Shown here: positions 411 through 64,000 of the stretch, one piece after another
How positions within the stretch are numbered: the first letter of the stretch is position 1
Layout: each line of letters opens with the position of its first letter
From: Escherichia phage vB_EcoP_EcoN5
Reading direction: 5' to 3' (one strand)
DNA length: 64,000 nt
Sequence record: MN715356
Translations under genes and position numbers: made by a program
Notes under the pieces: model-generated
What the model was told of the DNA's origin: nothing
The model's input: only the letters and a program-made list of their open reading frames with translations
The model's database searches: none

Positions 411-3400
411 ATGGCGCTGTATCCAATAAAGTCGTTAGGTGCTGTAGGCGTTATCGCTGATCAGGCTCCTACAGACTTAGCTCCTAATGCTTTCACTAAT
501 GCTATAAATGCTCGATTTGTTGAGCAGAGAGTATTTAAGACGGGGGGCAATGCCCCTCTTTCTTATGTAGATGAAGATAAGGATTTAACCCCTCTGTCTT
601 TCGTTTCTATGCCTTTCGATTATTATAGCGCAGGTAATAGCTTTCTTGTTGTAGGTACAGATAAGAAGTTATATAAACTGACAGATGAAAGCTTGACTGA
701 TATTAGCCGTAAGGTTGCTACAGTCACTAAGAAGGCTTCTGCCTCAATTAAGATTTATCCAGTTGTTTCTCAGATTGTTCCTAAAGAATCAACTATCTCA
801 ATGAACTTCAATCAGACCAAGAATCTAGAGGTTTCTCTTCTCCCTTCTGATGCTAACAATACTGATCTTGTTTGGGAGGTTAGTAACTCATCCTATGGAA
901 GTATTACGGTAGACCCTAGTGACTCTAAACTTGCTACTCTAACATCTTTTGAGAAAGAGGGTAATCTTGTAGTAACTATCTCTACTGCAAATGAGTCCGT
1001 AGTGGCTCAGATTGCTGTTAATATCATCGATGGTGATTCAGGCATCTTCTTGAGTCAAGATACTGTTACAATTCGTAAAGGAGGGACTACTACTCTCACG
1101 GCTGTTACTGGAAAGACCCCTGTAACTTGGTCCAGCAATAACGCTTCTATTGTATCTGTAACCCCTAACGCCAATTCTCTAACTGCTGTAATTACAGCGA
1201 ATGGAGAAGGTAATGTAACAATCACTGCTGATAACGGAACTAAGACTGCTTCTTGTGAGATTGTTTCTATCCCTCAGATTGATAGTATCTCTTTAAGCCA
1301 GTCAGATGTTACTGTGAGCAGAGGTTCTCAGTATATCTTAACTGCTACCCTTTCTCCTGCTAACGCTCCTAATCAAAATATTACTTGGACCTCTTCTAAT
1401 CCAAATATTGCAACAGTATCAGGGACTAGCACACAAGGGACAGTAAATGCTTTACTCGCTGGCTTTACTGAGATTACAGCTACCACTGAAGAAGGCAACA
1501 GGGTTGCTGTCTGTACTGTACGGGTAGACTTAGCTGGTAGGACTATGAGAACAAGTGCTATGGCATTTGCTGATCCTGTGTCAGAGCCAGTAGAATCTCA
1601 AGAGGAAGAAGTAGTAACTCCTTCTGAAAGTGAAGAGACGGTTTATTTTGCTGAGCCTACATCCGGTATCGATACGTCAGGGATGTACGAAGGTAATAAC
1701 TTCTATGACTACTCTAACGTGAATGACATTGAAGGTTTTGCAAGAGCTTCTTTAATGGCAACTCCTTTGTCATCCGTAACCTTAGATGTTGTCAGCGCTT
1801 CTCTCGATGTTGGTGAGGAAATAGTTATTACAGCTACAGCTTCCCCAGAAGGTGATTATTCTTATCAGTGGTCTGTTGATAAGACTGGTTATGTTTCTAC
1901 AACTTCAGTTACTGGTAAATCTGTCAAACTGGTTGCTCTTCGTAAAGGAGAGATTAACGTAACATGTACTGTCAGTCAAATGACTCAGAAAGATTATGAT
2001 GCTTTTGATGACTACCCTTGGTATCATGCTGTAATTTCTAACTGTGCAGTTGCTACAACCCACTATGAAACTCCTCAGGTAAAAGAATTCGAATCAGAAT
2101 ACTTTGTAGACCTTCCGGGATGGGGTGAGCAAACAGTTGTTGATAATGACGGAAACCCTTCAGTTAAGAAGTTTAACTGGAAATGTGAGAGAGTGAGATC
2201 TTTTAACAACCGTCTTTTTGCTCTGAATATGAGAGAGGCTAATGCTTCTGGTGTTACCACTAACTACCCGCTTCGTCTTCGTTGGTCTAACTTTGCCAAT
2301 GAGAATAAGGCTCCTACACTGTGGGATGACTTTGCCTATGATCGAGTTGTGTCTTCGGACTTAGCTTCTAACATCGTAGGGCAGACTCAGGCTCTAGAGA
2401 ATGGGTATGCTGGTTACATCGACTTAGCAGATTCTAATGGTAGCTTGATTGATATCCTACCTCTTAAAGATTACTTGTTCGTTTATACAGAGTTTGAAAC
2501 GTATATTGGTTCTCCGACTAATAACACATACCAACCCCTGATGTTCAAGAAACTCTTTAACGACTCTGGTATCCTTGCTCCTGAGTGTGTGGTTGAAGTA
2601 GAAGGTAGTCACTTCGTAGTTACTCAGAACGATGTAATCTTACACAACGGTGCAACCAAGAAGTCAATTGCATCTAACCGTGTCAAGAACATGCTGATTA
2701 ACGAGGTGTGTCTGGTTAACCCTCTAGCAACTCGAGTTCACTTACATCAGGATAAGAAAGAAGTTTGGGTTCTCTATGTAGGTCCGGGAGAGCCGAAAGA
2801 AAGCTTCGCTTGCACTAAAGCTGCTGTATGGAACTATGAGTTTGATACTTGGTCTTTCCGTACTATCCCTTATGCTCAGTGTATCGGTCTAGTTGATCCT
2901 CCTGTTTTAGAGAGAGGTCCAATCTGGTCTGATTTCCAAGAGATCACTTGGGATGACCCATCTATCAAAGAGCTTGTTTGGAGAAAGGATGCAACAAACT
3001 TTAGACAGAGGGTTACGATAGTAGGTTCGTTCTTGAGGGGATTCTACCAAGTGGATGTAGGTGCTCTTGATTATTTCTATGATAGGTTAAATGATGTTGT
3101 TATAGAGAAGCCTCTGGAAATGAGGTTGGAGAGAACTGGCATAGATTTTGATAATGTGACGAATGAGTGGAATCAGAAGCATATTAACAGATTCCGTCCT
3201 CAGACAACTGGCTCAGGTACTTATATCTTTGAAGCTGGAGGTAGTCAATTCTCAAATGAATATGGACACCCACACACATCTAAGACTTATACAATTGGTG
3301 TTGACAGGCATGTCTCGGTGAGACTGAACCATCCATACCTTTTCTATAATGTTATAGATAATGATGTTAACAGTAATGCCGCTATCAATGGTTTAACGAT

Positions 3401-3428
3401 AGAGTTTGCTGTTGGCGGGCGGAGATAA
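411..3428 (+). CDS. large tail fibre / tailspike-like protein with tandem Ig-like (BIG2-type) repeats
   Basis: 1005-aa ORF with strong RBS; several ~90-aa repeats of pattern 'S.SV.V.P....LTAV..G...ITA..G..A.C.V' typical of bacterial Ig-like group 2 domains. Confidence 0.5.
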   Translation: MALYPIKSLGAVGVIADQAPTDLAPNAFTNAINARFVEQRVFKTGGNAPLSYVDEDKDLTPLSFVSMPFDYYSAGNSFLVVGTDKKLYKLTDESLTDISRKVATVTKKASASIKIYPVVSQIVPKESTISMNFNQTKNLEVSLLPSDANNTDLVWEVSNSSYGSITVDPSDSKLATLTSFEKEGNLVVTISTANESVVAQIAVNIIDGDSGIFLSQDTVTIRKGGTTTLTAVTGKTPVTWSSNNASIVSVTPNANSLTAVITANGEGNVTITADNGTKTASCEIVSIPQIDSISLSQSDVTVSRGSQYILTATLSPANAPNQNITWTSSNPNIATVSGTSTQGTVNALLAGFTEITATTEEGNRVAVCTVRVDLAGRTMRTSAMAFADPVSEPVESQEEEVVTPSESEETVYFAEPTSGIDTSGMYEGNNFYDYSNVNDIEGFARASLMATPLSSVTLDVVSASLDVGEEIVITATASPEGDYSYQWSVDKTGYVSTTSVTGKSVKLVALRKGEINVTCTVSQMTQKDYDAFDDYPWYHAVISNCAVATTHYETPQVKEFESEYFVDLPGWGEQTVVDNDGNPSVKKFNWKCERVRSFNNRLFALNMREANASGVTTNYPLRLRWSNFANENKAPTLWDDFAYDRVVSSDLASNIVGQTQALENGYAGYIDLADSNGSLIDILPLKDYLFVYTEFETYIGSPTNNTYQPLMFKKLFNDSGILAPECVVEVEGSHFVVTQNDVILHNGATKKSIASNRVKNMLINEVCLVNPLATRVHLHQDKKEVWVLYVGPGEPKESFACTKAAVWNYEFDTWSFRTIPYAQCIGLVDPPVLERGPIWSDFQEITWDDPSIKELVWRKDATNFRQRVTIVGSFLRGFYQVDVGALDYFYDRLNDVVIEKPLEMRLERTGIDFDNVTNEWNQKHINRFRPQTTGSGTYIFEAGGSQFSNEYGHPHTSKTYTIGVDRHVSVRLNHPYLFYNVIDNDVNSNAAINGLTIEFAVGGRR

Positions 3429-3434
3429 CAACAA

Positions 3435-3458
3435 GGGGCTTCGTGCCCCTTTTATTGT
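3435..3458 (+). terminator. rho-independent terminator / attenuator hairpin
   Basis: GGGGC-TTCGT-GCCCC hairpin followed by TTTTATTGTTTT between fibre genes. Confidence 0.4.
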
Positions 3459-3471
3459 TTTGGAGGAACTT

Positions 3472-4440
3472 ATGGGTGCAGGTGGTTTTCGTAAGAACAC
3501 TGGTCGCAACAATACCACACTCCCGTACAACGTTGGGTTTCTCAATAATGTACAGGACACAGAAACATATAACGTAGCCGTATATGATGAGCTACAAAAA
3601 GTCAGTACAGCTACTAACCAAATGTTCCAAGCTATTGACGAGATTCACGATGAGATTGATGTTCGTATCAAAGCTCTTCATGCTATGAACCTACAATTCG
3701 ATGAGCTTGAGAATAGAATTACTACAGAGATAGAGACAGCTATTGCCGATATCCAAACACAGATGGGGAACCTCTCCACTGAAGATATTTGGGATAATTC
3801 TGTTCAACCTCCTGTAAAATTAGAAAGCACTGTATCTGGCTTTAAGACGAGTATTGAAGGTAACACAACTAAGATTCAAACGGTAGAAGGTATTGTCAAC
3901 GACCAAGGTCAAGAGATTGCTTTAGTTCAGACAGAGATTCAAAATATTAATGGAAGCCTCTCTCAGTATATGAAACTTTCCGAGTATGAAGCTACGTGGG
4001 GTGTTAACTCTACAGTCAACGGAAGATATGCTGGGGTCAAGTTAACTAACAACGGAACAAACAGCCAATTCCAAGTAACAGCTAACAAATTTATTGTTGG
4101 TGATGGCAACTCTGGTAACACTCCCTTCGTGTTTGAGGGTGGTAGAGCTAGGATGGAGTTCGCTGACATAAAGAACGTCAACATCACAACAGCTCAGATT
4201 GCCAACGCCAGAATCCAATGGGCACAGATTGATAACGTATCTATCTCCAATGCTCAGATTCAGAATTTATCAGCGGATAAAATCACTGCTGGTTCTATGT
4301 GGGGTTCTAACTGGAGACTTACTGTTGGGGGTGACTTTGTTATGGGCGGTACAGGTGGGGCACAATTGTGGATGAATGGTAACAGAATAGATTTCTATGA
4401 TGGAAGTGGTGCTCTAAGAATCAGAATAGGGAGTTGGTAA
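3472..4440 (+). CDS. tail-fibre-like protein (coiled-coil N-terminus, repeat-rich C-terminus)
   Basis: Track ORF 3406-4440; likely start ATG 3472 after GGAGGAACTT; repeated 'AQI.NA.IQ' motifs. Confidence 0.4.
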   Translation: MGAGGFRKNTGRNNTTLPYNVGFLNNVQDTETYNVAVYDELQKVSTATNQMFQAIDEIHDEIDVRIKALHAMNLQFDELENRITTEIETAIADIQTQMGNLSTEDIWDNSVQPPVKLESTVSGFKTSIEGNTTKIQTVEGIVNDQGQEIALVQTEIQNINGSLSQYMKLSEYEATWGVNSTVNGRYAGVKLTNNGTNSQFQVTANKFIVGDGNSGNTPFVFEGGRARMEFADIKNVNITTAQIANARIQWAQIDNVSISNAQIQNLSADKITAGSMWGSNWRLTVGGDFVMGGTGGAQLWMNGNRIDFYDGSGALRIRIGSW

Positions 4441-15626: not shown

Positions 15627-16445
15627 TTACCAAGATTTATCTAACCATGTCCAGTCGAACAGGTCTTCCGGAGTCTGACCAACAAAGAGAAGCCGAGCAT
15701 TCTCAAGCATCTTCTCTTCATCTTCAGTATCGAACTTCTTATAATATTCCATTCGTACTATATGATACATGGTCCACTTGTCTGTAACACCAGCCAACAA
15801 CTTAGCTGCTGCTTTCTTCCCTATTCCTTGACGTCGAAGCTGAAGCTTACCGCCCCACATAACTTCTTTACGTTCTCCACATCCGGGGATATTATCTGTA
15901 CCGTCTCCAACCAACATCTGATAGAAGAAGTTTTGCCATGAAACTAAATCAGATACATAGTGAGGAGGAACTTCTTTCTGTCTTTCTCCACAAGCCCAAC
16001 GGTAGTGCCATCCGGGAGTTATCAACAAATCCTTGTCTCTAGTACAGATGATAGTGTTCTTATCCCTACGTTGCCTTTCAGCTAGTGCATCATCAGCCTC
16101 TCTCCCAAATACATCTATGTATTCATATTTACCTTTAATGTAATCACCAACATTTTGCCAGTGAAAAGGTCTTTCTCCGGGAGGTCTATTTGCTTTGTAG
16201 TCTTGCTGCTTAGCAACATCAAAACGGAAGTTACCACCTTCGCTGAAGTAGAACACAACCTTACTGCAACCTGATCGAGCTATGATTGTATCAATCTTAT
16301 ATTGAAGTCGTTCAATCATGAAATTGTAATCAACTGGAACACGTCCTGTGTCAAGAAAGGGATGCTCCTGAGTAAGAGCACCCACTTCATATCGAAGAAC
16401 GTCAGCATCCACTATAGCTACTTCAGGGAGCTTAACGTCTTCCAT
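15627..16445 (-). CDS. 5'-3' exonuclease, T7 gp6-like
   Basis: 'DYKANRPP' and flanking acidic motifs match the T7 gene 6 exonuclease signature (NYKANR). Confidence 0.65.
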   Translation of the reverse strand: MEDVKLPEVAIVDADVLRYEVGALTQEHPFLDTGRVPVDYNFMIERLQYKIDTIIARSGCSKVVFYFSEGGNFRFDVAKQQDYKANRPPGERPFHWQNVGDYIKGKYEYIDVFGREADDALAERQRRDKNTIICTRDKDLLITPGWHYRWACGERQKEVPPHYVSDLVSWQNFFYQMLVGDGTDNIPGCGERKEVMWGGKLQLRRQGIGKKAAAKLLAGVTDKWTMYHIVRMEYYKKFDTEDEEKMLENARLLFVGQTPEDLFDWTWLDKSW

Positions 16446-46860: not shown

Positions 46861-48057
46861 TTATTTTCCTAAAAATAATCCGCTCATGACACCATCCCAC
46901 TCAGAGGAAGGAATCACTGAATACTCCGAACTTTGGTCCAGAGTCCCACTACTAAATCGCTGAACAATGTTGTAGATGTTGAACAGGTCTTTAGTCTCGG
47001 CACGAATGCCGTAGATTAGCCTGTTAGCTGTTTTCTCATTTTTAGACACGCGACGGGTAAAGTTAACCAAAAGATTATCACCTTTAAGTATCTCTGACCC
47101 ATCTTTTACTAGATCGGGGTGCATCACTGGCAAGAACATTGAGTTGTTAACTCGTAATTCTGCTGTTTCATCATTCTCATAATGAATCCACTTAAAGTCT
47201 TCATCACGGAAATGACCACACCCATCTCTGTATGACTGTTGACGCCAAGGAACTTGAAATGCTTCAGAGTGTTTATCAGCCATGCCGACTGTAAACAGCG
47301 ACGCTGGGAAGATACAAGCATCCCAATCATTACCAACCAGAGTTGCTTTCGTTTCCCCTAAGAGGTTAGTGTAAGTGCTAACCATTCGTGAGTAAACGTA
47401 AGCCTGAAGAATTGTCCAGCCTTCAACCAACCATTTATGAAGGAAGGTTTCAACTTGACTCTCTTCATCTTCGCAATAGAAGGTTCTATCTAACATTAAA
47501 TAGAACAGACAACGATCAGCAGGAACATTCTCAGTTGCTACCCCCATAAAGCCTTTCTCGTGCCAGCGTAAACAGGAGGGACGATCTTTGTCCACAAATG
47601 CTTCCATAGCTTCCAGTACAGCACGAGGTGTGGTTCGATATTCAGGGTTTTTGTCGTTCCAACGATCAATGTTATTCTTAGGAGGTGTGTCTTCATCTTC
47701 ATACGAACACCAACTTAAAGCTTCAGCTACGTGCTTTTCATCACGCCAGCGTCTAAAACCTAACATCTTCATGTGAGTTCCGGAGTTCCAGATATGCTTG
47801 ATTTTACACATATCCATCTCTCGGCTTAACAGGAATTCTTCCCCATCAGCACTACGAACGTTAGCCTCTTCATGCCACACTCGAACGTGCATATTCCACC
47901 CATGAGTTGCCTCATACATGTTAGGGTCGAAGTATTCATCTTCGTCATCATCTTCATCAACGCCACCGTTATAGTTGCGAAGCTGAAGGAACCCATAACA
48001 AGGAGGGTTGACCGTTAAAACATTACCTTCAGTATCTTCTAATGTTACTGGAAACAT
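46861..48057 (-). CDS. hypothetical protein; first 54 codons lie inside the duplicated segment
   Basis: 398-aa ORF with acidic N-terminal 'DEDDDEDEY' stretch. Confidence 0.4.
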   Translation of the reverse strand: MFPVTLEDTEGNVLTVNPPCYGFLQLRNYNGGVDEDDDEDEYFDPNMYEATHGWNMHVRVWHEEANVRSADGEEFLLSREMDMCKIKHIWNSGTHMKMLGFRRWRDEKHVAEALSWCSYEDEDTPPKNNIDRWNDKNPEYRTTPRAVLEAMEAFVDKDRPSCLRWHEKGFMGVATENVPADRCLFYLMLDRTFYCEDEESQVETFLHKWLVEGWTILQAYVYSRMVSTYTNLLGETKATLVGNDWDACIFPASLFTVGMADKHSEAFQVPWRQQSYRDGCGHFRDEDFKWIHYENDETAELRVNNSMFLPVMHPDLVKDGSEILKGDNLLVNFTRRVSKNEKTANRLIYGIRAETKDLFNIYNIVQRFSSGTLDQSSEYSVIPSSEWDGVMSGLFLGK

Positions 48058-48068
48058 TATACCAACCT

Positions 48069-48431
48069 CTATTGGTTTTTAATCAACTCAATCGACTTAC
48101 GGATATAAAGAATATCTCGGAAGTTTCGATAGTTGTTCATAAATTGGTGCTTCTGGAAAGTAGCTTCTTCCAGAGCTTTCTTTGCTTCTGCGTAATTTTT
48201 ACGGGCAAGATGTACAACCCGCTCTGGTAACACATTTGCACGACGGATGATATACTTGTGAGCTTTCATGTTGCTTTGCTCACGAGCAATCTTACATTTA
48301 GCAACTTTGATACCATTTGCAATCCAAGCAAGTTCTTGCTCAAGCTCATCGTTGGACATTCCACCGAGATTTGATGCAACCTTGTTCAGAGTTTCAATAT
48401 TAACGTTGCCCTTAATGGGACGTGTATTCAT
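48069..48431 (-). CDS. hypothetical protein (copy 1)
   Basis: 120-aa ORF, basic, helical; duplicated at 49587-49949. Confidence 0.4.
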   Translation of the reverse strand: MNTRPIKGNVNIETLNKVASNLGGMSNDELEQELAWIANGIKVAKCKIAREQSNMKAHKYIIRRANVLPERVVHLARKNYAEAKKALEEATFQKHQFMNNYRNFRDILYIRKSIELIKNQ

Positions 48432-48433
48432 AC

Positions 48434-48586
48434 TTACTCCTGTTGTTTACACTCGTCAATAACCCACTGATAAGTGGATTGCCCAGAAAAGAAACACTGA
48501 ATAAATCCAGATGTTCTCTGCGTTACCAGTGCTAGTGCACAAATCACTACCGCTGCTGCTAGCAGTTTTAAATCTAATTTAGACAT
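48434..48586 (-). CDS. small membrane / signal-peptide protein (copy 1)
   Basis: Hand-translated ~50-aa ORF 'MSKLDLKLLAAAVVICALALV...' with RBS GAGGAAAT; below track cutoff. Confidence 0.3.
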   Translation of the reverse strand: MSKLDLKLLAAAVVICALALVTQRTSGFIQCFFSGQSTYQWVIDECKQQE

Positions 48587-48823
48587 ATTTCCTCTCATTG
48601 AATTTAAAAAAGGACTCTCCGAAAAGAGCCAAGCTTTAAATCCAAAAAAAGATATTACCCAATATCTGTGGATAACCTGCTCTTAAAATATCTATCCGAC
48701 GGATGTTTGAGGAACACTCCTCTCCCTAGCATCGGCCCCATACGGGAAATATATTAAGATTAGGTTAGTTGAGTCAGAATAACTCACATAGCCCTCCGAG
48801 GAAGGCTATAGGTGTTACTACAA

Positions 48824-49039
48824 CTAAAAATCACCTGATTTTACAAAATCATCACTAAGAATTTCGTCAATCTCTTTGCTAGTCAAATCTTTCCTGAACC
48901 AGCAACAAGGTACATCCACCCATTGACCAGAGTTGTTTTCTACAGAGCATCTATTGCCTGTCTTACTCTTGCACTTATAGGTTTTACCTTTGTCTAGACG
49001 GTAGTGTATTCTGTAAACGATCGACACAAGTGTTATCAT
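48824..49039 (-). CDS. Cys-containing small protein (copy 1)
   Basis: 71-aa ORF with 'CKSKTGNRC...PCCW'. Confidence 0.35.
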   Translation of the reverse strand: MITLVSIVYRIHYRLDKGKTYKCKSKTGNRCSVENNSGQWVDVPCCWFRKDLTSKEIDEILSDDFVKSGDF

Positions 49040-49272
49040 TACTCGCCTTTCTTAGCACGATCTTTGGCAGTTTTGCCAGTGCGGATGCGATGGGAAACGT
49101 TAACCAGAGTGCCACCATCAACTACGGTAACGCTCTTGTTTTTAGCCAGATCGAACACAGTTTTCTCCGTGCCACCCAAGCGAATTTGCTTAGGCTCACT
49201 GAAGGTTTGGGTTGATTTAGATTGGAACTGAAACGGTTGACGGATTGCATCAATTGCACTTACTTTAGACAT
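49039..49272 (-). CDS. hypothetical protein (copy 1)
   Basis: 77-aa ORF preceded by hairpin and conserved motif. Confidence 0.4.
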   Translation of the reverse strand: MSKVSAIDAIRQPFQFQSKSTQTFSEPKQIRLGGTEKTVFDLAKNKSVTVVDGGTLVNVSHRIRTGKTAKDRAKKGE

Positions 49273-49586
49273 AGTGGAAATTCCTTAAAAAGTTATGGCT
49301 GCGTAGAGGGAATTCCCTACGCAAATTGGGCCGCCTAAAAAGAGGCGTCATAGTACTAAAAGGAGGAGAGAAGAGGGCTTATTTAGCTACCTTTTTCTGT
49401 CCGTTTACAAACCCCACCCATGAGTTGCCTCATACATGTTAGGGTCGAAGTATTCATCTTCGTCATCATCTTCATCAACGCCACCGTTATAGTTGCGAAG
49501 CTGAAGGAACCCATAACAAGGAGGGTTGACCGTTAAAACATTACCTTCAGTATCTTCTAATGTTACTGGAAACATTATACCAACCT

Positions 49587-49949
49587 CTATTGGTTTTTAA
49601 TCAACTCAATCGACTTACGGATATAAAGAATATCTCGGAAGTTTCGATAGTTGTTCATAAATTGGTGCTTCTGGAAAGTAGCTTCTTCCAGAGCTTTCTT
49701 TGCTTCTGCGTAATTTTTACGGGCAAGATGTACAACCCGCTCTGGTAACACATTTGCACGACGGATGATATACTTGTGAGCTTTCATGTTGCTTTGCTCA
49801 CGAGCAATCTTACATTTAGCAACTTTGATACCATTTGCAATCCAAGCAAGTTCTTGCTCAAGCTCATCGTTGGACATTCCACCGAGATTTGATGCAACCT
49901 TGTTCAGAGTTTCAATATTAACGTTGCCCTTAATGGGACGTGTATTCAT
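49587..49949 (-). CDS. hypothetical protein (copy 2, identical to 48069-48431)
   Basis: Identical translation. Confidence 0.4.
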   Translation of the reverse strand: MNTRPIKGNVNIETLNKVASNLGGMSNDELEQELAWIANGIKVAKCKIAREQSNMKAHKYIIRRANVLPERVVHLARKNYAEAKKALEEATFQKHQFMNNYRNFRDILYIRKSIELIKNQ

Positions 49950-50341
49950 ACTTACTCCTGTTGTTTACACTCGTCAATAACCCACTGATAAGTGGATTGC
50001 CCAGAAAAGAAACACTGAATAAATCCAGATGTTCTCTGCGTTACCAGTGCTAGTGCACAAATCACTACCGCTGCTGCTAGCAGTTTTAAATCTAATTTAG
50101 ACATATTTCCTCTCATTGAATTTAAAAAAGGACTCTCCGAAAAGAGCCAAGCTTTAAATCCAAAAAAAGATATTACCCAATATCTGTGGATAACCTGCTC
50201 TTAAAATATCTATCCGACGGATGTTTGAGGAACACTCCTCTCCCTAGCATCGGCCCCATACGGGAAATATATTAAGATTAGGTTAGTTGAGTCAGAATAA
50301 CTCACATAGCCCTCCGAGGAAGGCTATAGGTGTTACTACAA

Positions 50342-50557
50342 CTAAAAATCACCTGATTTTACAAAATCATCACTAAGAATTTCGTCAATCTCTTTGCTAG
50401 TCAAATCTTTCCTGAACCAGCAACAAGGTACATCCACCCATTGACCAGAGTTGTTTTCTACAGAGCATCTATTGCCTGTCTTACTCTTGCACTTATAGGT
50501 TTTACCTTTGTCTAGACGGTAGTGTATTCTGTAAACGATCGACACAAGTGTTATCAT
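50342..50557 (-). CDS. Cys-containing small protein (copy 2)
   Basis: Identical translation to 48824-49039. Confidence 0.35.
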   Translation of the reverse strand: MITLVSIVYRIHYRLDKGKTYKCKSKTGNRCSVENNSGQWVDVPCCWFRKDLTSKEIDEILSDDFVKSGDF

Positions 50558-50790
50558 TACTCGCCTTTCTTAGCACGATCTTTGGCAGTTTTGCCAGTGC
50601 GGATGCGATGGGAAACGTTAACCAGAGTGCCACCATCAACTACGGTAACGCTCTTGTTTTTAGCCAGATCGAACACAGTTTTCTCCGTGCCACCCAAGCG
50701 AATTTGCTTAGGCTCACTGAAGGTTTGGGTTGATTTAGATTGGAACTGAAACGGTTGACGGATTGCATCAATTGCACTTACTTTAGACAT
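50557..50790 (-). CDS. hypothetical protein (copy 2)
   Basis: Identical translation to 49039-49272. Confidence 0.4.
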   Translation of the reverse strand: MSKVSAIDAIRQPFQFQSKSTQTFSEPKQIRLGGTEKTVFDLAKNKSVTVVDGGTLVNVSHRIRTGKTAKDRAKKGE

Positions 50791-51021
50791 AGTGGAAATT
50801 CCTTAAAAAGTTATGGCTGCGTAGAGGGAATTCCCTACGCAAATTGGGCCGCCTAAAAAGAGGCGTCATAGTACTAAAAGGAGGAGAGAAGAGGGCTTAT
50901 TTAGCTACCTTTTTCTGTCCGTTTACAAACCAGATAATCGAACCGTCAGGCTGTCGTTGACCGAAGCCTTTTTGGTTAATCATATCGTCATAAGAATATG
51001 CTTTACGTCTCATTTGTTTTC

Positions 51022-51270
51022 CTACGAAGTTAGGATGATTTCAGCCTTAATAAACTTCTCACCAACAACCATGTCACCAGACACAGGACGAACCTCTCCA
51101 GTGCCTAGGTTAACAGCTCCAGCAGGTTGACAACCCATGCTCTTAGTTGTCAGCATGTAAATCTTTTGAAGATGGCACTCTTGGAGAGTGAACACATCTG
51201 ACATATTTAGATCTTTAACACGGAGGACTGTTTCCTCTTTGCTCTTAACTTTAATATGAATAGTGCTCAT
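51022..51270 (-). CDS. small protein, GDVF/VNLxTG paralog family
   Basis: 'SDVF' and 'GAVNLGTGEV' shared with six other small ORFs. Confidence 0.4.
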   Translation of the reverse strand: MSTIHIKVKSKEETVLRVKDLNMSDVFTLQECHLQKIYMLTTKSMGCQPAGAVNLGTGEVRPVSGDMVVGEKFIKAEIILTS

Positions 51271-51272
51271 GA

Positions 51273-51518
51273 TTACTCCTGAACCACTGACATACGAATC
51301 ATTTCCACCGGAGTGTCACCTTTCATAACACCCAGCACACCAGTCAGAAGATTGACTGTAGTAATCCAACCCTCTTCTACAGAGATCTTGTTGGACACGT
51401 TATTAACACGCATGTAATACTGAGGTGATGCTGTACCTCGCTGAACTACGAAAGGGTTTCCGGGGATGATAGTATCCAGCGGATGTGTGGTATCTTTAAC
51501 CTTGGGGATAATTTTCAT
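51273..51518 (-). CDS. small protein, GDVF/VNLxTG paralog family
   Basis: Track ORF 51273-51560 trimmed to Met 'MKIIPKV'; 'TTVNLLTGVLG'. Confidence 0.35.
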   Translation of the reverse strand: MKIIPKVKDTTHPLDTIIPGNPFVVQRGTASPQYYMRVNNVSNKISVEEGWITTVNLLTGVLGVMKGDTPVEMIRMSVVQE

Positions 51519-51519
51519 A

Positions 51520-51750
51520 TTATTTACCCTGAATAATAAGTTTGGATTCGAACAGCTCAACAGTATTGGTCAGAGGAACTGGAAAGAAAATATCTTTAGA
51601 GTTCCGAACACCCATTGCAGAGTGATCCCCTGTTTTTATCCAAAATTTAGCGATTACGTCGTTACCAGTAAAACGGAAAACATCTCCATTCTCTAAGTCA
51701 GAGAAAGTCTTGGAGGGTGCTTTGCTTTTTGGTACTAGCTCAAAGTTCAT
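51520..51750 (-). CDS. small protein, GDVF/VNLxTG paralog family
   Basis: 'ENGDVFRF...FWIKTGD'. Confidence 0.4.
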   Translation of the reverse strand: MNFELVPKSKAPSKTFSDLENGDVFRFTGNDVIAKFWIKTGDHSAMGVRNSKDIFFPVPLTNTVELFESKLIIQGK

Positions 51751-51758
51751 CTTGATTC

Positions 51759-52070
51759 CTATTTAAGTTTGAGGCTAATGTTAAGGTGCATACATGCCCT
51801 GTTCTGTACAGCAGCATAACTCCTACCGAGCATGTCAGCCATTTTCTGAATAGACATGAACCCAGCATTACGGATAAGGAACTGGTCTTCTTCTTTAGAC
51901 CACTTGACTCGGATTGAAGCTCTTGATATTCCGAATTTAGTGCAAGCTGTATTAACTGCATTCTCCGTTACATTCATAATCTGAGCAACCTCTTGGACAG
52001 AGTACTCTTTGATTAGTCTCCGAAGATTTTCAATCTGCATCGGAGTCCATATAGTTCTTCGAGCTTTCAT
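51759..52070 (-). CDS. DNA-binding protein with duplicated helix-turn-helix
   Basis: Two HTH-like repeats 'YSVQEVAQIMNVTENAVNTA' and 'MSIQKMADMLGRSYAAVQNRA'. Confidence 0.45.
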   Translation of the reverse strand: MKARRTIWTPMQIENLRRLIKEYSVQEVAQIMNVTENAVNTACTKFGISRASIRVKWSKEEDQFLIRNAGFMSIQKMADMLGRSYAAVQNRACMHLNISLKLK

Positions 52071-54930: not shown

Positions 54931-55434
54931 CTCTATTAACTGTTATATGTCCAATTACCTTGCTTGTTACGGATGGCTGACATTGCATGAATCCAGAAGC
55001 TTTCAAGTTTCAGAGCACCGTTAGCTACTGCATCCATACGTTCAGGGCGGTTCATACGTTTGGTTGATACTTTCATACCTATCTCTCTTTGTTAGTGGAG
55101 GCATTATTGCCAGTTGATATAAGGGATAGCCCTAGTCAGTAGACTAATTCTGACCGCGTACTCATTGCCGACCTTCTCTGCCTAAGAGTTCAGGTTCTAG
55201 AGCTATCTCTTATTCCAACTGGTGAAGACCTCCTACCCCTAGGAGATCTCCCGAATCCCAAACCAATACGTACCCCTACGTAGTGGGAAGTCTACCGAAA
55301 TTGAACAGGTTTTAGTCTAACACCGGATGTTCGAGCAAGCTCTCCCTAGCGGTGCGGCATATGCCTGATTGATGTAGTTAATGAGGAACACCCTCACATA
55401 GCCCTCTGATAAATACAAGGGCTATAAGTCGGTG

Positions 55435-57269: not shown

Positions 57270-57523
57270 TAGCTGGGCCGTTGTTATCAGAACTTGCTAC
57301 CTCCTCTCAGGATAAAACACCTTTCATGTATGCCGTACTCGAAGCCCTCCTTGTGGCTTTTAGTATGGATTGCTTAGCCTTAGTCTTAACTTCTTCTGTC
57401 ATTCCATCAAAAACACCGAGCTTAGTTAGCTCCTTACTAGGAGGCTTATAGGAAGGGTTTAAAGCATTAGATAAATTATGACCATAGGCATGACCACGGC
57501 ACAATAAAGAAGAAAGATTAAGC

Positions 57524-57889
57524 CTATGGATTTACACATTGACCGTTACCGGATGCGATTTCATTCATTGACTCATCAAACAAGGTTAGGGATGAGCGCA
57601 TCAAGTGATCGACCGTGATTTGTTTACCGGTAGTTTCATTTACCAGTTGAATAGTTTTATCATATGATTGCACATGATCGAAATCATTTACATGCAAAAT
57701 AATAACTTTAGGTGACTTTTTACCAGTCGAATAGTTTTCTATCAAATAGGTGCACTGTAAACCTTCCACCGTATCAGGGGAAAATGTTGCAGCCTTTACA
57801 CTACCCATAGCCGATAGGAGAACGCCCAGCAGGAGAACGACCAGAAAAAACCCTACAACCATTTTAATGATGAATTTAATAAACCACAT
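57524..57889 (-). CDS. membrane-anchored protein
   Basis: N-terminal TM 'MVVGFFLVVLLLGVLLSAMG'. Confidence 0.4.
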   Translation of the reverse strand: MWFIKFIIKMVVGFFLVVLLLGVLLSAMGSVKAATFSPDTVEGLQCTYLIENYSTGKKSPKVIILHVNDFDHVQSYDKTIQLVNETTGKQITVDHLMRSSLTLFDESMNEIASGNGQCVNP

Positions 57890-58038
57890 AACTATAAACC
57901 TTTTAATCAGAGGATGTAAGAATAAAGCATATCAGCGACGAATAACGCCACTGTAACAACGAACAAGCAACGCCAAAAATAATCATGAATCATCACAACA
58001 ACCCTACATAACGTTAAGAATGATCAGGACGCCAACCC

Positions 58039-59034: not shown

Positions 59035-59253
59035 TTTTGCTACTCCTTAGATAGAATCAATTAACTATCGCCACTATATAATAAAAGGAAAGAGCGACAA
59101 CCATTTATTTTTTAACTTTCTCATAAATCACTGAATCTTAAAGAAATTTAATTTACTAAACTTTCTCATTCAGGGCATAGCTTACTACTTCTATAATACA
59201 AAGACGGTATTCAAGGTTACTACTCATACTTATACCTCCTGTTTTACGGGCAT

Positions 59254-59279
59254 AAAAAAGCCCCAGCCGTAGCCGGGGC
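59254..59279 (-). terminator. rho-independent terminator
   Basis: GCCCCGGC-TACG-GCTGGGGC hairpin followed on the minus strand by TTTTTT. Confidence 0.5.
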
Positions 59280-59342
59280 AAACCTGAAAGCAACACATGA
59301 CCGTTGCTATAAATACACTCGCAAATGCACTTACAGCAACGC

Positions 59343-59364
59343 AAAAAGCCGCTCAAAGGCGGCT
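59343..59364 (-). terminator. rho-independent terminator
   Basis: AGCCGCC-TTTGA-GCGGCT hairpin followed on the minus strand by TTTTT. Confidence 0.5.
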
Positions 59365-59444
59365 ATGCGGAAGCTTCAAATGGGGAGAGGGCACGACGCT
59401 ACAGAAAGAGCGTCATAGTACTAAAAGAGGGGGCTATATTCCTA

Positions 59445-59888
59445 CTACTTAACCCTTGCTTCTTTGATGGGGTCAATGTATTTTTCAACTCCCCACTTGT
59501 GTTTACTATCTGCGTAGAAAACATCAGGAGCACACTGACTTGTCTTAGGAAATGCCTGAGGGTCTTTCGTGCTACCTTTAAACTTCTGTTTACCACGGGT
59601 GCGACCATTACAGAAGATTTCTAACTTCTTCTCCTCTTCTGTTTTAGCTCCCCCGCTCTTTAACAAAGAACGTTTATGATCGGCTAACAATAACGCATCA
59701 GCACGATGAACACGATGGCCTACACGCTTTGCCACACTAGAAGGAATATGGGATTCAGCTTCAGCCTTTGCAGCACGACGTTTTAAACTGCGCTTGCTGA
59801 CGTGATTGGTTGCCTTTGGCTTCTCTTTCTCCAGTTCAGAGATAGAAAAACAACGCCCGCCCTTCATGCTGATTTTTGATTTAGCCAC
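59445..59888 (-). CDS. basic protein, function unknown
   Basis: 147-aa Lys/Arg-rich ORF. Confidence 0.4.
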   Translation of the reverse strand: MAKSKISMKGGRCFSISELEKEKPKATNHVSKRSLKRRAAKAEAESHIPSSVAKRVGHRVHRADALLLADHKRSLLKSGGAKTEEEKKLEIFCNGRTRGKQKFKGSTKDPQAFPKTSQCAPDVFYADSKHKWGVEKYIDPIKEARVK

Positions 59889-59957
59889 AATCTTATTCCT
59901 TTTAGTGATAAGTTATATCGGGCAAGCCCATCGTAGGGATAGGCTTGAACAAATAAC

Positions 59958-60167
59958 TTAATCAAGTAAACTAAATGACTTCCAACTGCGTAGCAGGATT
60001 GTACCATCATCCATAGTCACGCATAACTTTAACAATTTCTTGTTAGCACTGCTCACCGTTGTAATTCGTCCAGTTGTACATTTACCTTTGTTGCTATAAA
60101 GATATATAACACGACGGCCTAACAGTCTGGAAGGTGCTTTCTTAAATTCAGATATATTAGTGATCAT
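59958..60167 (-). CDS. hypothetical protein
   Basis: 69-aa co-directional ORF. Confidence 0.35.
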   Translation of the reverse strand: MITNISEFKKAPSRLLGRRVIYLYSNKGKCTTGRITTVSSANKKLLKLCVTMDDGTILLRSWKSFSLLD

Positions 60168-60388
60168 GATGCTTGATACCTTTGAATGTGTTCAATACGG
60201 GTGGATTGAGCAAATGACGCTTTAACAGCCATTTTTCTAACTTCTTCTTTACGCTGGTTAGTGTGTACAGTATCCCAATGGTCGTTATCACGTTGGCGCT
60301 GTAATATCTTACTACATTTGCGATGGTTTCCCGTGCTGCGATGTTTCTCACAAATAGGACACTTGCCAAAATTACTACTAAAGATCAT
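60164..60388 (-). CDS. zinc-finger protein
   Basis: 'CPICEKH...HRKC' Cys/His cluster. Confidence 0.35.
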   Translation of the reverse strand: MIFSSNFGKCPICEKHRSTGNHRKCSKILQRQRDNDHWDTVHTNQRKEEVRKMAVKASFAQSTRIEHIQRYQAS

Positions 60389-60612
60389 TTTCTTAATCCC
60401 AACTTTCTTAAAACACGGCCTAACGTTGTTTCTTGCGTGATAACATAGCTGATCGCTTCCCGTTCCAACGTTTCAATCATCATTGGCGACGGATACCATT
60501 CACCAGTAAGCATACATTTGCACTCAACGCCATACTTTTTAGATAGTCGGTAATGTTGACCGTTGACAAGATTCCTATAAACCGTAGTATGCGTAACTAA
60601 CATGATTGTCAC
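60385..60612 (-). CDS. hypothetical protein
   Basis: 75-aa co-directional ORF. Confidence 0.35.
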   Translation of the reverse strand: MTIMLVTHTTVYRNLVNGQHYRLSKKYGVECKCMLTGEWYPSPMMIETLEREAISYVITQETTLGRVLRKLGLRK

Positions 60613-60661
60613 CTTTGATTAAATTCTTTGATTAGCCCACTGAATCAATGCACTGATAAAA

Positions 60662-60691
60662 GAAAAGGCGCTACCCGTTAAGATAGCGCCT
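60662..60691 (-). terminator. rho-independent terminator
   Basis: GGCGCTA-N10-TAGCGCC hairpin followed on the minus strand by TTTCTTTT. Confidence 0.45.
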
Positions 60692-60714
60692 TATGCTTAT
60701 TTGGATTGTCTTAC

Positions 60715-61623
60715 TTATGCCGCCTGACGTGCCGCCATAATTTCAGCCGCTTTGCGCAATACTTCTTCTTCTTCTGCTTTCGCAGCTTGTTCGGTACGGG
60801 TAGCAACCGTTGAAGAGATACGACCGCGCAGACTTTCTAACTTCTCCTGCATTTTGGCAATGGTGGATTCCATTTCATCGGCATACGAATCTAGTGACTC
60901 CAATTCTTTGCTCGATGCGTTCATCAGATAATCGTCGGAGATCGCTACCGTTGAGGCCGTGACTTTCTTGATGAGTGAGTCGAATGACTTCTTAACCTTG
61001 CCGACTTCTTCACTTAAGGCAATAGTGTTATCACTGGTAGCGCCGTTGCGCTCATCAGCCAGCAATTTGGCTTCAATACGGATCGCATTCAAGCGTTCAA
61101 CTAAAGCGTAAATATCCTGATTAAAATCTTCCTTGTTTTTCGCCGGGATTTGAAGGTGGGCCGCCACGTTGTCATTGCAGCCTTTAAAGAAGTTAGGGTT
61201 ATCCACTTCAATTTCACGGCCTAAAGCAAAATTCTCGAAAGCATTCGACCAGCGAGCGCGGTTTTGTTCCATTTTGGCCTTAATTTGCGCTTCTTTCGCA
61301 TCTTCTTTCGCTTTCGCCTCACCTTCCAGATTAATCCACTTCTTACGACCGTTTGCCGCCTCGGTGTTATATTTGATAGGCGTTAGGAAAGTAATTGCAG
61401 TGGCGATCACGTCCATATCGCGGAAACGTTCAGTTAACAGAAAATCAATCGCCGACTGCAATACATCTAACTTTTTACCGTTGCTGCGGAAGTGCTGCAA
61501 ATGCCCTAACAAAAAGTTAGAAACATCTTGTTTGATTGCCGCGTTATTGCTACGAATGTTGTTAGCCAGTGCGTTAAAACCAGATTCTTTTACCAGATTA
61601 AAAACTTTAGCCATGATATTCAC
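60715..61623 (-). CDS. first gene of the minus-strand arm, function unknown (N-terminal domain plus C-terminal coiled coil)
   Basis: 302-aa ORF with RBS; lies just downstream of the long noncoding promoter region. Confidence 0.45.
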   Translation of the reverse strand: MNIMAKVFNLVKESGFNALANNIRSNNAAIKQDVSNFLLGHLQHFRSNGKKLDVLQSAIDFLLTERFRDMDVIATAITFLTPIKYNTEAANGRKKWINLEGEAKAKEDAKEAQIKAKMEQNRARWSNAFENFALGREIEVDNPNFFKGCNDNVAAHLQIPAKNKEDFNQDIYALVERLNAIRIEAKLLADERNGATSDNTIALSEEVGKVKKSFDSLIKKVTASTVAISDDYLMNASSKELESLDSYADEMESTIAKMQEKLESLRGRISSTVATRTEQAAKAEEEEVLRKAAEIMAARQAA

Positions 61624-62527
61624 CTTTCAATTGTAAGGGCACTATGCCCCGCTCTCTATGAGCTTTTTAAGTCACTATTGACTTATCTATAACCACTCAC
61701 TTTTTAAGTAGTCATAGGTAAGTGGGGCGGTCTTATCAGGAGTTAACCTTGCCGCCCCCTTATCCGTGATGTTTCATCTGGTATCTTTAATTAGTCGCTA
61801 TAAACGAAGCCGACCTGACAGCGATGATCAATCATCACAATAAGGCTATGCGTCCGACTCTATTTAATTACATTGCTGTAACCGTCGGCAATATCGTCCA
61901 CTTTGTTTTCGCTCCCGCTTATCCTTTTATATCAGCTCTCTATCGCTAGTCATCGCCCACTACGGGATACTATTGCGAAAGAGTCACTAACCGCCTAGTA
62001 TTCCGGCGTTTTATATCTTTCAGCAGGTTTACTACATAACCCGACTATGTACTTTCATCTTGTGATGAATCTCAAGCCGCTCACATCGTAAACGTTCGCA
62101 TTAAACCTTATTGTTAAATAGCAATTTGCCACTTTTTAACCACTCCCCGCCGCTCTCAATTGAGCGTTAATTAGTCGGGCTTGTCTACCCTGATTGACTT
62201 CTTTCACTGTAGCACCGTGTTAGCGATGGCCTCCGCTACCCTTAACCGTGGGCGATTAGCTTAAGCCGTTGCGTGTACTCAATGAATCCGTTTATCAGTG
62301 GTGACGTTTCCAGTAAGGGAATGTAAAACTGTTTACCCTGATAGTCTAGGGAGTTTTACGCCGTTTTATCTGGTATGTTTTCCGATGGTTATTATCGTCC
62401 AACATATTAAACCGATATAGGAGAATGTTTAAATTATTAAAGAGCGGTAAATCTGTCGAAGTGCTTTCTCACTTCCCGCCACCGTTCGCCGTGGTTTCGC
62501 GTTTCACTAGTTGCCTAGTGAGTGCTC

Positions 62528-62556
62528 ATTATGAATCATGCTGTTTTAGCTGTCAA
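62528..62556 (-). promoter_or_regulatory. sigma70-type promoter (TTGACA-17 bp-CATAAT)
   Basis: On minus strand: TTGACA, 17-bp spacer, CATAAT, with A-rich upstream tract. Confidence 0.5.
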
Positions 62557-63150
62557 CCGCTTTTTTAATCTTTTTCATCGTTCCCGCTATTGGGAGGATA
62601 TATCAATCAGCTATGTTTGATTGAAGATTAAGCGGCAAGGCTTAACTTATGATTCATATTTTTAAAGAGCGGTGTTTCTTATTACTAATCGTTAACGTTG
62701 TTTTGTTAACTTGTGGTTAGTATGAACTACTTTAACCACGTTTGCAATCTCTTTTTTATCATCTTCTTTTATTCCGTTCCCTTATCTCGCGTGAATCTAT
62801 GCGAAAGGGCAAGATGATAAGTCTGATTTGTCTTTTAGGAATCTAGTGCGCTTTCAAGCATCGACCATTTGAAAGTATCGAACAAATGAGGCTTATTTTG
62901 TTGCTCATCGTCCGCCTGTTCACGTATGAATCAGGAATCAATTCTAGCGGTCAACTAAGCGCCTTATAGTAATGACGTTGCCGCCACCTGTAAGACAAAT
63001 CATATTTTTAAAGAGCGTGCGGCTCACATAACACCGCTTGATAATCAGTTAACCTATGATTATTCAGGGGCATAGTATCCGCTTGCCTACGTCTGACTTG
63101 CTTCACTCACTAGGGAGTTACTTGAGCGGTCATCTTGTCTTTCTAAGCTC

Positions 63151-63179: not shown

Positions 63180-64000
63180 ACTCTTTTTAAGAATATTTTC
63201 ACTTTCTAGCCTGATTTTTAAAGAGCGGGGCAAGTTTCCTTGCCTTGTATGTTTTACATCGTACCCGATAGAAATGAGTATACGCCAATCAGTTGGGGAT
63301 GCAATAGGGTAAAGCAAAATATTTTAAACTTTTTCACTATGGGAAGGTAAAAGAGCGGGCGAACGTGATACATCATAGAAAACGGCTTGTAAAGCCATAA
63401 TAAGCGGCCTAAAACGCACTATAGCGAGCTAAAAGGGAGTAAGGAATACAATCACCTTAGAAAAGAAAAAAGCCCCATAAGGAAAGCAAGTACAACGCTA
63501 GCGCTACGGGTAGCAGACCAACATACCAAGACAAACGGGCAACATACAACCGCAGAATAGACCACGGGGAAACATGCCAGATAGTGCGGTAATAATATAC
63601 CACTTAAATAATTAGTTAACTATTAATAGCATTACTCAAACATCAAACGTTAAAAGAAAAAGAATAAAAGAACGCTGAAAAAAGAAAGAATAAAAAGAAT
63701 ATAATAACTGTTAATTACTATCATCCACTTAATTAATACATATATCATTATTACACTCATAATCATTACTATTGAAACTATTTACATTCAAACTGTGGGG
63801 AGCTGTGACTGTTACATGACGGTATTATTATCATGGTTATGAATGTGCCTATACTAGTTTATACAGTGCTGGCCTTTCTCCTACTCTTTAAAGGGGAACT
63901 AAATAAACGGGTAGGTAATGTAATAGATGACATATACGGGGAAAGAATAACGGGGAGTAGGCACGGGGAAAGGTGGAACGTTGAAAGGGAAGGTAAAGGC

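Follow-up and report, generated by a model that had tools for sequence, protein, structure and literature searches.

A perfect 1,518-bp tandem repeat in the genome record of Escherichia phage vB_EcoP_EcoN5 and the predicted structured RNA that lies within it

The 64,000-nucleotide (nt) stretch of Escherichia phage vB_EcoP_EcoN5 DNA analysed here (sequence record MN715356; "the window" below) contains a 1,518-bp segment that is present twice, head-to-tail and without a single difference between its copies. Base-by-base comparison of the window with itself at an offset of 1518 shows that positions 47896–49413 (copy 1) match positions 49414–50931 (copy 2) at 1,518 of 1,518 nt, with identity dropping to the chance level in the 100 nt outside either end of the unit (0.19 and 0.18). 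The unit is present exactly twice, and a repeat scan (spacing 1518) identified this pair as the sole long direct repeat in the window; a perfect repeat of 1.5 kb cannot have originated by chance. The initial annotation of this DNA had described a perfect head-to-tail 1518-bp duplication, which this comparison confirms, at coordinates (47895–50930) that were one base low and should read 47896–50931. It had also proposed either a very recent event or an assembly artefact as the cause, and this is the right pair of alternatives, between which sequence evidence alone does not decide. On balance we lean toward the view that the two copies are not biological and represent the untrimmed end overlap of a rotated contig. 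The unit also carries a predicted RNA motif that is previously uncatalogued and absent from Rfam, and this motif is a more interesting result than the duplication itself.

The window comes from a prolate podophage of E. coli that resembles phiEco32 and belongs to Kuravirus. It is 90–96% identical in nucleotide sequence to about 100 relatives in GenBank, and about 94% identical to the nearest of them. Its collinearity with phiEco32 begins near position 16,004 of that genome and extends as far as the right terminal repeat; the homologue of the phiEco32 direct terminal repeat (DTR) lies at window positions 63872–64000, and the window is 2,512 bp longer than the corresponding phiEco32 span. When 30 phiEco32 genes (mostly the larger ones) were compared with the window by tblastn, 27 were intact in a single frame, and the three exceptions were gp34, which has no match, and gp119 and gp128, which match partially in a rearranged region. 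The phiEco32 gp88–gp94 region (NC_010324: 60111–63210) has the same gene order as the duplicated region, about 94–98% identity to it and the same 235-nt gp91–gp90 intergenic region, but it is present in a single copy and has in addition a membrane-protein gene, gp92, between gp91 and gp93. The segment is likewise single-copy in about 100 relatives. In 96 of them the two halves of a 300-nt probe across the junction between the copies match separate places, and none covers more than 50% of the probe; blast searches with 300 nt gave no junction-spanning match in phages, RefSeq E. coli or PLSDB plasmids. The junction was not found in IMG/VR by an exact 48-mer search, nor in Joint Genome Institute (JGI) metagenomes or GTDB genomes by a degenerate 30-mer search, and a literature search for any Kuravirus duplication or phiEco32 non-coding RNA returned nothing relevant. 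Both breakpoint sites are uninterrupted in five relatives, and deletion of one copy in silico leaves a region that matches phage EcP-vB in one 4.49-kb high-scoring segment pair (93.7% identity). Because the relatives are single-copy, the junction was found in no collection searched and the de-duplicated window is collinear with EcP-vB, the duplication is a single, derived, zero-divergence event that is unique to this genome record.

All genes of the duplicated region are of the early class and lie on the minus strand, as do the features described below unless another strand is given. In phiEco32 numbering the unit holds the 3' 35 nt of gp94, then gp93, gp91, an intergenic region of ~225–237 nt, gp90, gp89 and the first 54 codons of gp88; its breakpoints thus cut two coding genes and do not frame a module. 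The left breakpoint falls exactly after gp88 codon 54, on a codon boundary (48057 − 47896 + 1 = 162 nt): the intact 398-aa gp88 homologue (46861–48057; phrog_13063, function unknown; 93.7% identical to phiEco32 gp88 over its full length by tblastn) has its first 162 nt in copy 1. The right breakpoint, 50931|50932, is inside the open reading frame (ORF) of an intact 38-aa gp94 homologue (50897–51013; phrog_14557), of which a 3' fragment of 35 nt including the stop codon (49379–49413, the counterpart of 50897–50931) is repeated at the end of copy 1. At the novel junction, 49413|49414, which reads ...TTTACAAACC|CCACCCATGAG..., gp88 codons 1–54 are joined out of frame to this gp94 fragment, which adds Gly-Leu-stop and creates a chimeric 56-aa ORF (49405–49575). 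That both junctions are within coding sequence and that copy 2 yields a 56-aa chimera had been noticed in the initial annotation and is borne out here, but the 1–2 nt of microhomology that it gave for the junctions is not present: the base before copy 1 is T where the unit ends in C, the base after copy 2 is A where the unit opens with C, and a search for microhomology or homeology at both breakpoints found none, so that the junction is blunt (0 nt). No entry for the exact chimeric protein, nor for the exact gp88 and gp89 proteins of this phage, was found in an index of 153 billion genes.

Two known kinds of event could leave such a structure, namely an error of assembly and a segmental duplication that is recent and, apart from its blunt ends, ordinary. 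If the former, which we consider somewhat the more probable, a contig assembled from circular-looking (concatemeric, DTR-bearing) phage DNA would have carried an overlap of 1,518 bp at its two ends; the untrimmed contig would then have been rotated to the conventional phiEco32 orientation, and the rotation would have set the contig's end beside its start, giving a blunt, perfect, two-copy "tandem duplication". An untrimmed overlap of this sort predicts two copies, 100% identity, a blunt junction placed without regard to genes, occurrence in one record and an otherwise normal genome, and two copies at 100% identity, an arbitrary blunt junction and a single record are what is found. The bluntness of the junction is relevant here: microhomology borders the documented segmental amplifications of phages, and an arbitrary join of two positions has a probability of (3/4)^2 = 0.56 of showing 0 nt of it. 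The window has the orientation of phiEco32 as far as the terminal-repeat homologue, consistent with re-orientation of the record once it had been assembled. A genome that includes the extra copy would be about 80.1 kb long, more than every non-redundant relative seen (Paul, 79,429; PAS59, 79,199), and without it the length is about 78.5 kb, which is typical. We infer the assembly history from these features; the derived, unique, zero-divergence and blunt state, in an otherwise clean and collinear Kuravirus genome, is seen directly.

Untrimmed redundancy of an assembly type does occur in this phage group: in the record of Escherichia virus TH38 (MT446410.1, UNVERIFIED, 81,552 bp) the last 412 nt (81141–81552) equal positions 3340–3751 at 100% and positions 1–172 nearly equal 3174–3344, and the true unit length is therefore nearer 77.8 kb. 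There the redundancy touches the end of the record, whereas in the present case it is internal, and an extra rotation step has to be assumed. A published comparison left out four of 36 Kuravirus-like genomes because of assembly errors (PMC9965538). A further record, PP350014.1 (phage PH444), is at 114,913 bp far longer than any Kuravirus genome (~75–79 kb) and has the region only once, and it is therefore probably a chimeric or mis-joined contig.

Several points weigh against an assembly origin. The call is drawn from anatomy and base rates, the ends of the record are outside the window and the rotation is assumed. De Bruijn assemblers leave overlaps of k-mer length, and an overlap of 1,518 bp therefore implies an overlap-layout or long-read assembler; the consensus is without long-read-type frameshifts, 27 of the 30 genes compared above each keeping to one intact frame, although this absence, sought in the 30 genes as a clue to the assembler, is uninformative. 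A genuine illegitimate join can be blunt too, and the event falls among accessory early genes, a place in which adaptive amplification is to be expected.

It is quite possible, if somewhat short of probable in our judgement, that the duplication is genuine, a very recent segmental event in the phage population. It could have formed by a blunt, homology-independent illegitimate join between sister or concatemeric genomes during replication, setting 50931 next to 47896, and dosage selection could maintain it, in the manner of an accordion and, for example, in response to a host defence, or recombination may simply not have removed it yet. Kuravirus-like phages have DTRs of ~190 bp (~193 bp in the genus) and T7-like packaging, and DTR-type packaging imposes no strict headful limit (PMC9965538); an extra 1.5 kb would be tolerated because packaging is between ~193-bp terminal repeats and is not headful. 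The anatomy is like that of verified phage amplifications, being head-to-tail with boundary genes intact and a truncated gene at the junction, for which SegB in the 718-bp repeats of T6 (PMC13096335) and the dmd-tifA repeats of T4 (PMC9391042) are parallels. The unit lies in a variable early region, mostly of unknown function and thought to serve host takeover (PMC8948821; PMC9965538), in which gene content between gp91 and gp93 varies among relatives; the sequence is otherwise of high quality; and short-read assemblers normally collapse such repeats and do not create them (phiCD146 is an example, PMC5557969). The likeness to the T-even "genomic accordions" (T4 dmd-tifA selected against ToxIN, PMC9391042; T6 tRNA-Tyr/segB against Septu, PMC13096335) extends to a head-to-tail unit of 0.7 to several kb in an early or accessory region, intact flanking genes, a truncated gene at each internal junction and recent, identical copies with a novel end-to-start junction. 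Those accordions, however, have microhomology at their junctions (in T4 typically 6–10 bp and elsewhere 2–10 bp, PMC9391042; also reported for T6, PMC13096335), more than two copies, verification by read depth and inverse polymerase chain reaction and an identified anti-defence gene, and in T4 they are accompanied by compensating deletions because packaging is headful. The present case has a blunt junction, two copies and DTR-based packaging and is known only from its sequence.

Other features also count against a real duplication. There are only two copies, they have not diverged, and neither about 100 relatives nor any collection searched yielded an independent second case. A perfect 1.5-kb repeat should vanish quickly by homologous recombination unless it is selected. 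The resulting genome would be the largest in the genus, and no compensatory deletion is linked to it: gp92 is absent here, but it is absent from the duplication-free EcP-vB as well. The suggestion in the initial annotation of a gene-dosage amplification is possible but has no specific support, since the proteins of the unit, those of the four duplicated genes included, all fall in PHROG families of unknown function and no Pfam match lies above the curated cut-off; no known anti-defence or other function was thus recognised with PHROGs and Pfam, a search that did not extend to PADLOC or anti-defence libraries. Were the duplication real, transcription of the leftward early genes would pass twice through gp93, gp91, the structured RNA described below, its terminator, gp90 and gp89 and so double their dose, a second terminator would stand upstream of gp88–gp80, and a 56-aa acidic N-terminal fragment of gp88 would be made; the benefit of such a dose might, hypothetically, lie in counter-defence. 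A fuller version, in which the duplication is real and was selected for doubling an early module whose key part is the undescribed structured RNA, making it a natural accordion that acts on an RNA-containing host-takeover cassette of a T7-style DTR phage through a blunt join, seems unlikely to us.

The proposal that the repeat is instead a functional feature long maintained in the lineage, either an iterated regulatory or origin module around a DnaA box or a displaced terminal repeat, strikes us as highly improbable. In its favour, the non-coding element of the unit is conserved and includes a perfect DnaA-box consensus, TTATCCACA (48667–48675 and, in copy 2, 50185–50193; one per unit), of which TGTGGATAA is the reverse complement, and GGTTATCCACA, which holds the box, is invariant in seven of seven aligned elements from two phage families while the adjoining bases vary. 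But zero divergence over 1,518 nt together with absence from every relative excludes long-term maintenance, and the breakpoints cut two coding genes where a module would be framed by them. The window has three perfect DnaA-box matches against 0.7 expected, and the box is not enriched genome-wide because two of the three are the duplicated copies; being single in each unit, it does not form an origin-like cluster, and a DnaA-box origin was rejected. At this site GGUUA pairs with UAACC in a predicted closing helix. A displaced DTR was rejected as well: the DTR homologue is at the end of the window, 63872–64000, and the unit maps to phiEco32 61146–63128, within the early genes. A sigma70 promoter in the intergenic region is not supported either, as the best match is 9 of 12, promoter-like sites number 5 against 7.8 in shuffled sequences, and the spacing is not conserved in Salmonella phages.

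What, then, is conserved between gp91 and gp90? The initial annotation had seen a regulatory intergenic region with a DnaA-box-like motif; the region is indeed conserved and the box perfect, but the spacer is better described as a structured sense-strand RNA followed by an intrinsic terminator. This element, P1 (48599–48823; copy 2, 50117–50341), is predicted to consist of a hairpin, H1, directly after the gp91 stop codon, a multibranch domain, the DnaA-box sequence and a terminal intrinsic terminator. The gp91–gp90 spacer is 95–99% identical among close relatives, and P1 retains 69–73% nucleotide identity in Salmonella phages of another family (Grimontviridae/Moazamivirus), namely 7-11, SE131, SeKF_80 and pSal-SNUABM-01, where its upstream neighbours encode proteins without similarity to gp91 or gp93 and its downstream gene is endolysin-like. 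RNAalifold applied to a seven-sequence alignment gave a consensus of 61 base pairs, in 11 of which both sides have changed in a compensatory manner, and 98.1% of cells are paired against at most 51% in slid-partner controls. The predicted fold energy is −70.9 kcal/mol for the sense strand and −54.5 kcal/mol for the antisense strand (sense minimum free energy z-score −3.55), and these energies, with several invariant G-U pairs, point to the transcribed strand. The element ends in an intrinsic-terminator-like hairpin, GGCUCU-UUUCGG-AGAGUCC followed by UUUUUU (48604–48630; copy 2, 50122–50148), directly upstream of the gp90 ribosome-binding site; its stem is kept and its loop varies across the seven phages, and the equivalent site is annotated "terminator" in the records of phages 4E8 and 7-11. 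We conclude that P1 is a predicted conserved, structured sense-strand RNA ending in an intrinsic terminator, its structure supported by covariation in two phage families. Rfam 15 gave no match at E ≤ 1 in positions 47000–52000.

Within P1 a core motif of two hairpins (48691–48750; copy 2, 50209–50268) comprises CCC-GUAU-GGG and then a helix around an invariant 7 × 7 internal loop (CUAGGGN / RAACAUC). A covariance model of this motif, R1, scores 75.1 bits (E ~1e-15) on the P1 core. Among 21 distinct sequences of the motif 96% of cells are paired and 7 of 14 pairs are changed on both sides, and one position of the closing helix is occupied by three different pair types. The model also finds a diverged paralogue, P2 (55315–55369; 61 bits, E ~2e-12), which lies outside the duplication in a 358-nt intergenic region (55077–55434) and whose closing helix is entirely different (CACCG/CGGUG, against CCGAUG/CGUCGG in P1) and still pairs. 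The window thus has three copies (two P1 and P2), phiEco32 has two and each Moazamivirus locus fetched has one; every Kuravirus examined has the motif in the form of two paralogues. P2 occurs in phiEco32 (67910–67964), NJ01, ECBP2 and many metagenomic Kuravirus contigs, and in the window two GGGG-looped hairpins come after it, UACGUA-GGGG-UACGUA and CUCCUA-GGGG-UAGGAG. A more distant copy (R1 69.9 bits) is at 3082–3141 on the plus strand of a contig from a Flavobacterium sp. metagenome-assembled genome (JBOFGJ010000684.1) and therefore suggests that the motif has spread far beyond enterobacterial phages. That copy stands in a spacer of ~460 nt surrounded by numerous short same-strand ORFs, several of which end in ...DEENE, a setting that looks like a phage early region. 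Further matches from a relaxed scan of IMG/VR, metagenomes and genomes (soil, archaeal and other viral contigs) score at most 22 bits with R1 and were set aside as chance, and Rfam 15 gave chance-level matches only on P2 and the Flavobacterium copy.

The early class of genes is transcribed by the host sigma70 holoenzyme, and promoters for the phage sigma factor (gp36) are upstream of genes 6, 13, 26, 40, 58 and 68 only (PMC4331800; PMC8948821). Phage 7-11, a relative, has been postulated to use an undefined form of antitermination (PMC8948821), and processive antiterminators that consist of RNA only are known in HK022 put, Bacillus EAR and Tn916 canT (PMC11658703). By analogy with these, it is plausible that the P1/P2 RNA acts in cis as an antiterminator on host RNA polymerase. 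The likeness concerns the intergenic RNA only: in each case a structured nascent sense RNA of a long operon transcribed by host RNA polymerase stands just upstream of an intrinsic terminator, and the RNA is compact, with several hairpins and internal loops conserved in sequence. P1 has the corresponding architecture, a sense-specific structure supported by covariation and then a conserved terminator in a host sigma70 early transcript (PMC8948821), but it has no sequence or Rfam relationship to put, EAR or canT, and the resemblance is architectural and positional only. Alternatively, the RNA may be a terminator-ended small RNA or a processing site. Whichever way the duplication arose, phiEco32/7-11-like phages have in this motif a concrete candidate for their antitermination or RNA-based regulation, which has been postulated but not defined.

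The consequences of the repeat itself depend on its origin. As an artefact it would mean that the genome in the record is 1.5 kb too long and its 56-aa ORF spurious, and a correction would be needed before comparative or therapeutic use. As a true duplication it would be a segmental amplification in a natural isolate of a terminal-repeat-packaging podophage, formed without microhomology; it would extend the "genomic accordion" picture beyond laboratory-evolved T-even phages, and it would make gp89–gp93 and the intergenic RNA candidates for dosage-sensitive host-takeover or counter-defence functions.

The remaining genes of the unit occur twice as the initial annotation listed them, its inventory having omitted the 38-aa gp94 homologue at 50897–51013. 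They are the 120-aa gp89 homologue (48069–48431; copy 2, 49587–49949; phrog_11370), a small hydrophobic ORF of 54 or 50 aa homologous to gp90 (48434–48598; copy 2, 49952–50116; phrog_13048), the 71-aa gp91 homologue (48824–49039; copy 2, 50342–50557; phrog_33631) and the 77-aa gp93 homologue (49039–49272; copy 2, 50557–50790; phrog_6662). The true start of the gp90 homologue is likely MSKLDL at 48586, giving 50 aa: the phrog_13048 profile matches residues 5–54, and a ribosome-binding site, GAGAGGAAATATG, is visible. At 49039/50557 the window lacks gp92, which in phiEco32 is a membrane-protein gene of 465 bp; EcP-vB, EcK-vB and EcM-vB1 lack it too, and SR02 carries an extra gene at the gp91–gp93 boundary instead; this boundary, just inside the duplicated unit, is a hot spot of gene gain and loss. 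The 106-nt spacer between gp94 and gp93 contains a near-perfect palindrome, GCGTAGGGAATTCCCTCTACGC (49290–49325 and 50808–50843), which is also duplicated and whose equivalent site is annotated as a terminator in phage 4E8. Farther to the right, gene order differs from that of phiEco32 around 57441–57986 and 59251–62673: the former matches phiEco32 74648–75192 yet sits upstream of a block that matches 70422–73854; the far-right part of the early region has here been locally rearranged or replaced.

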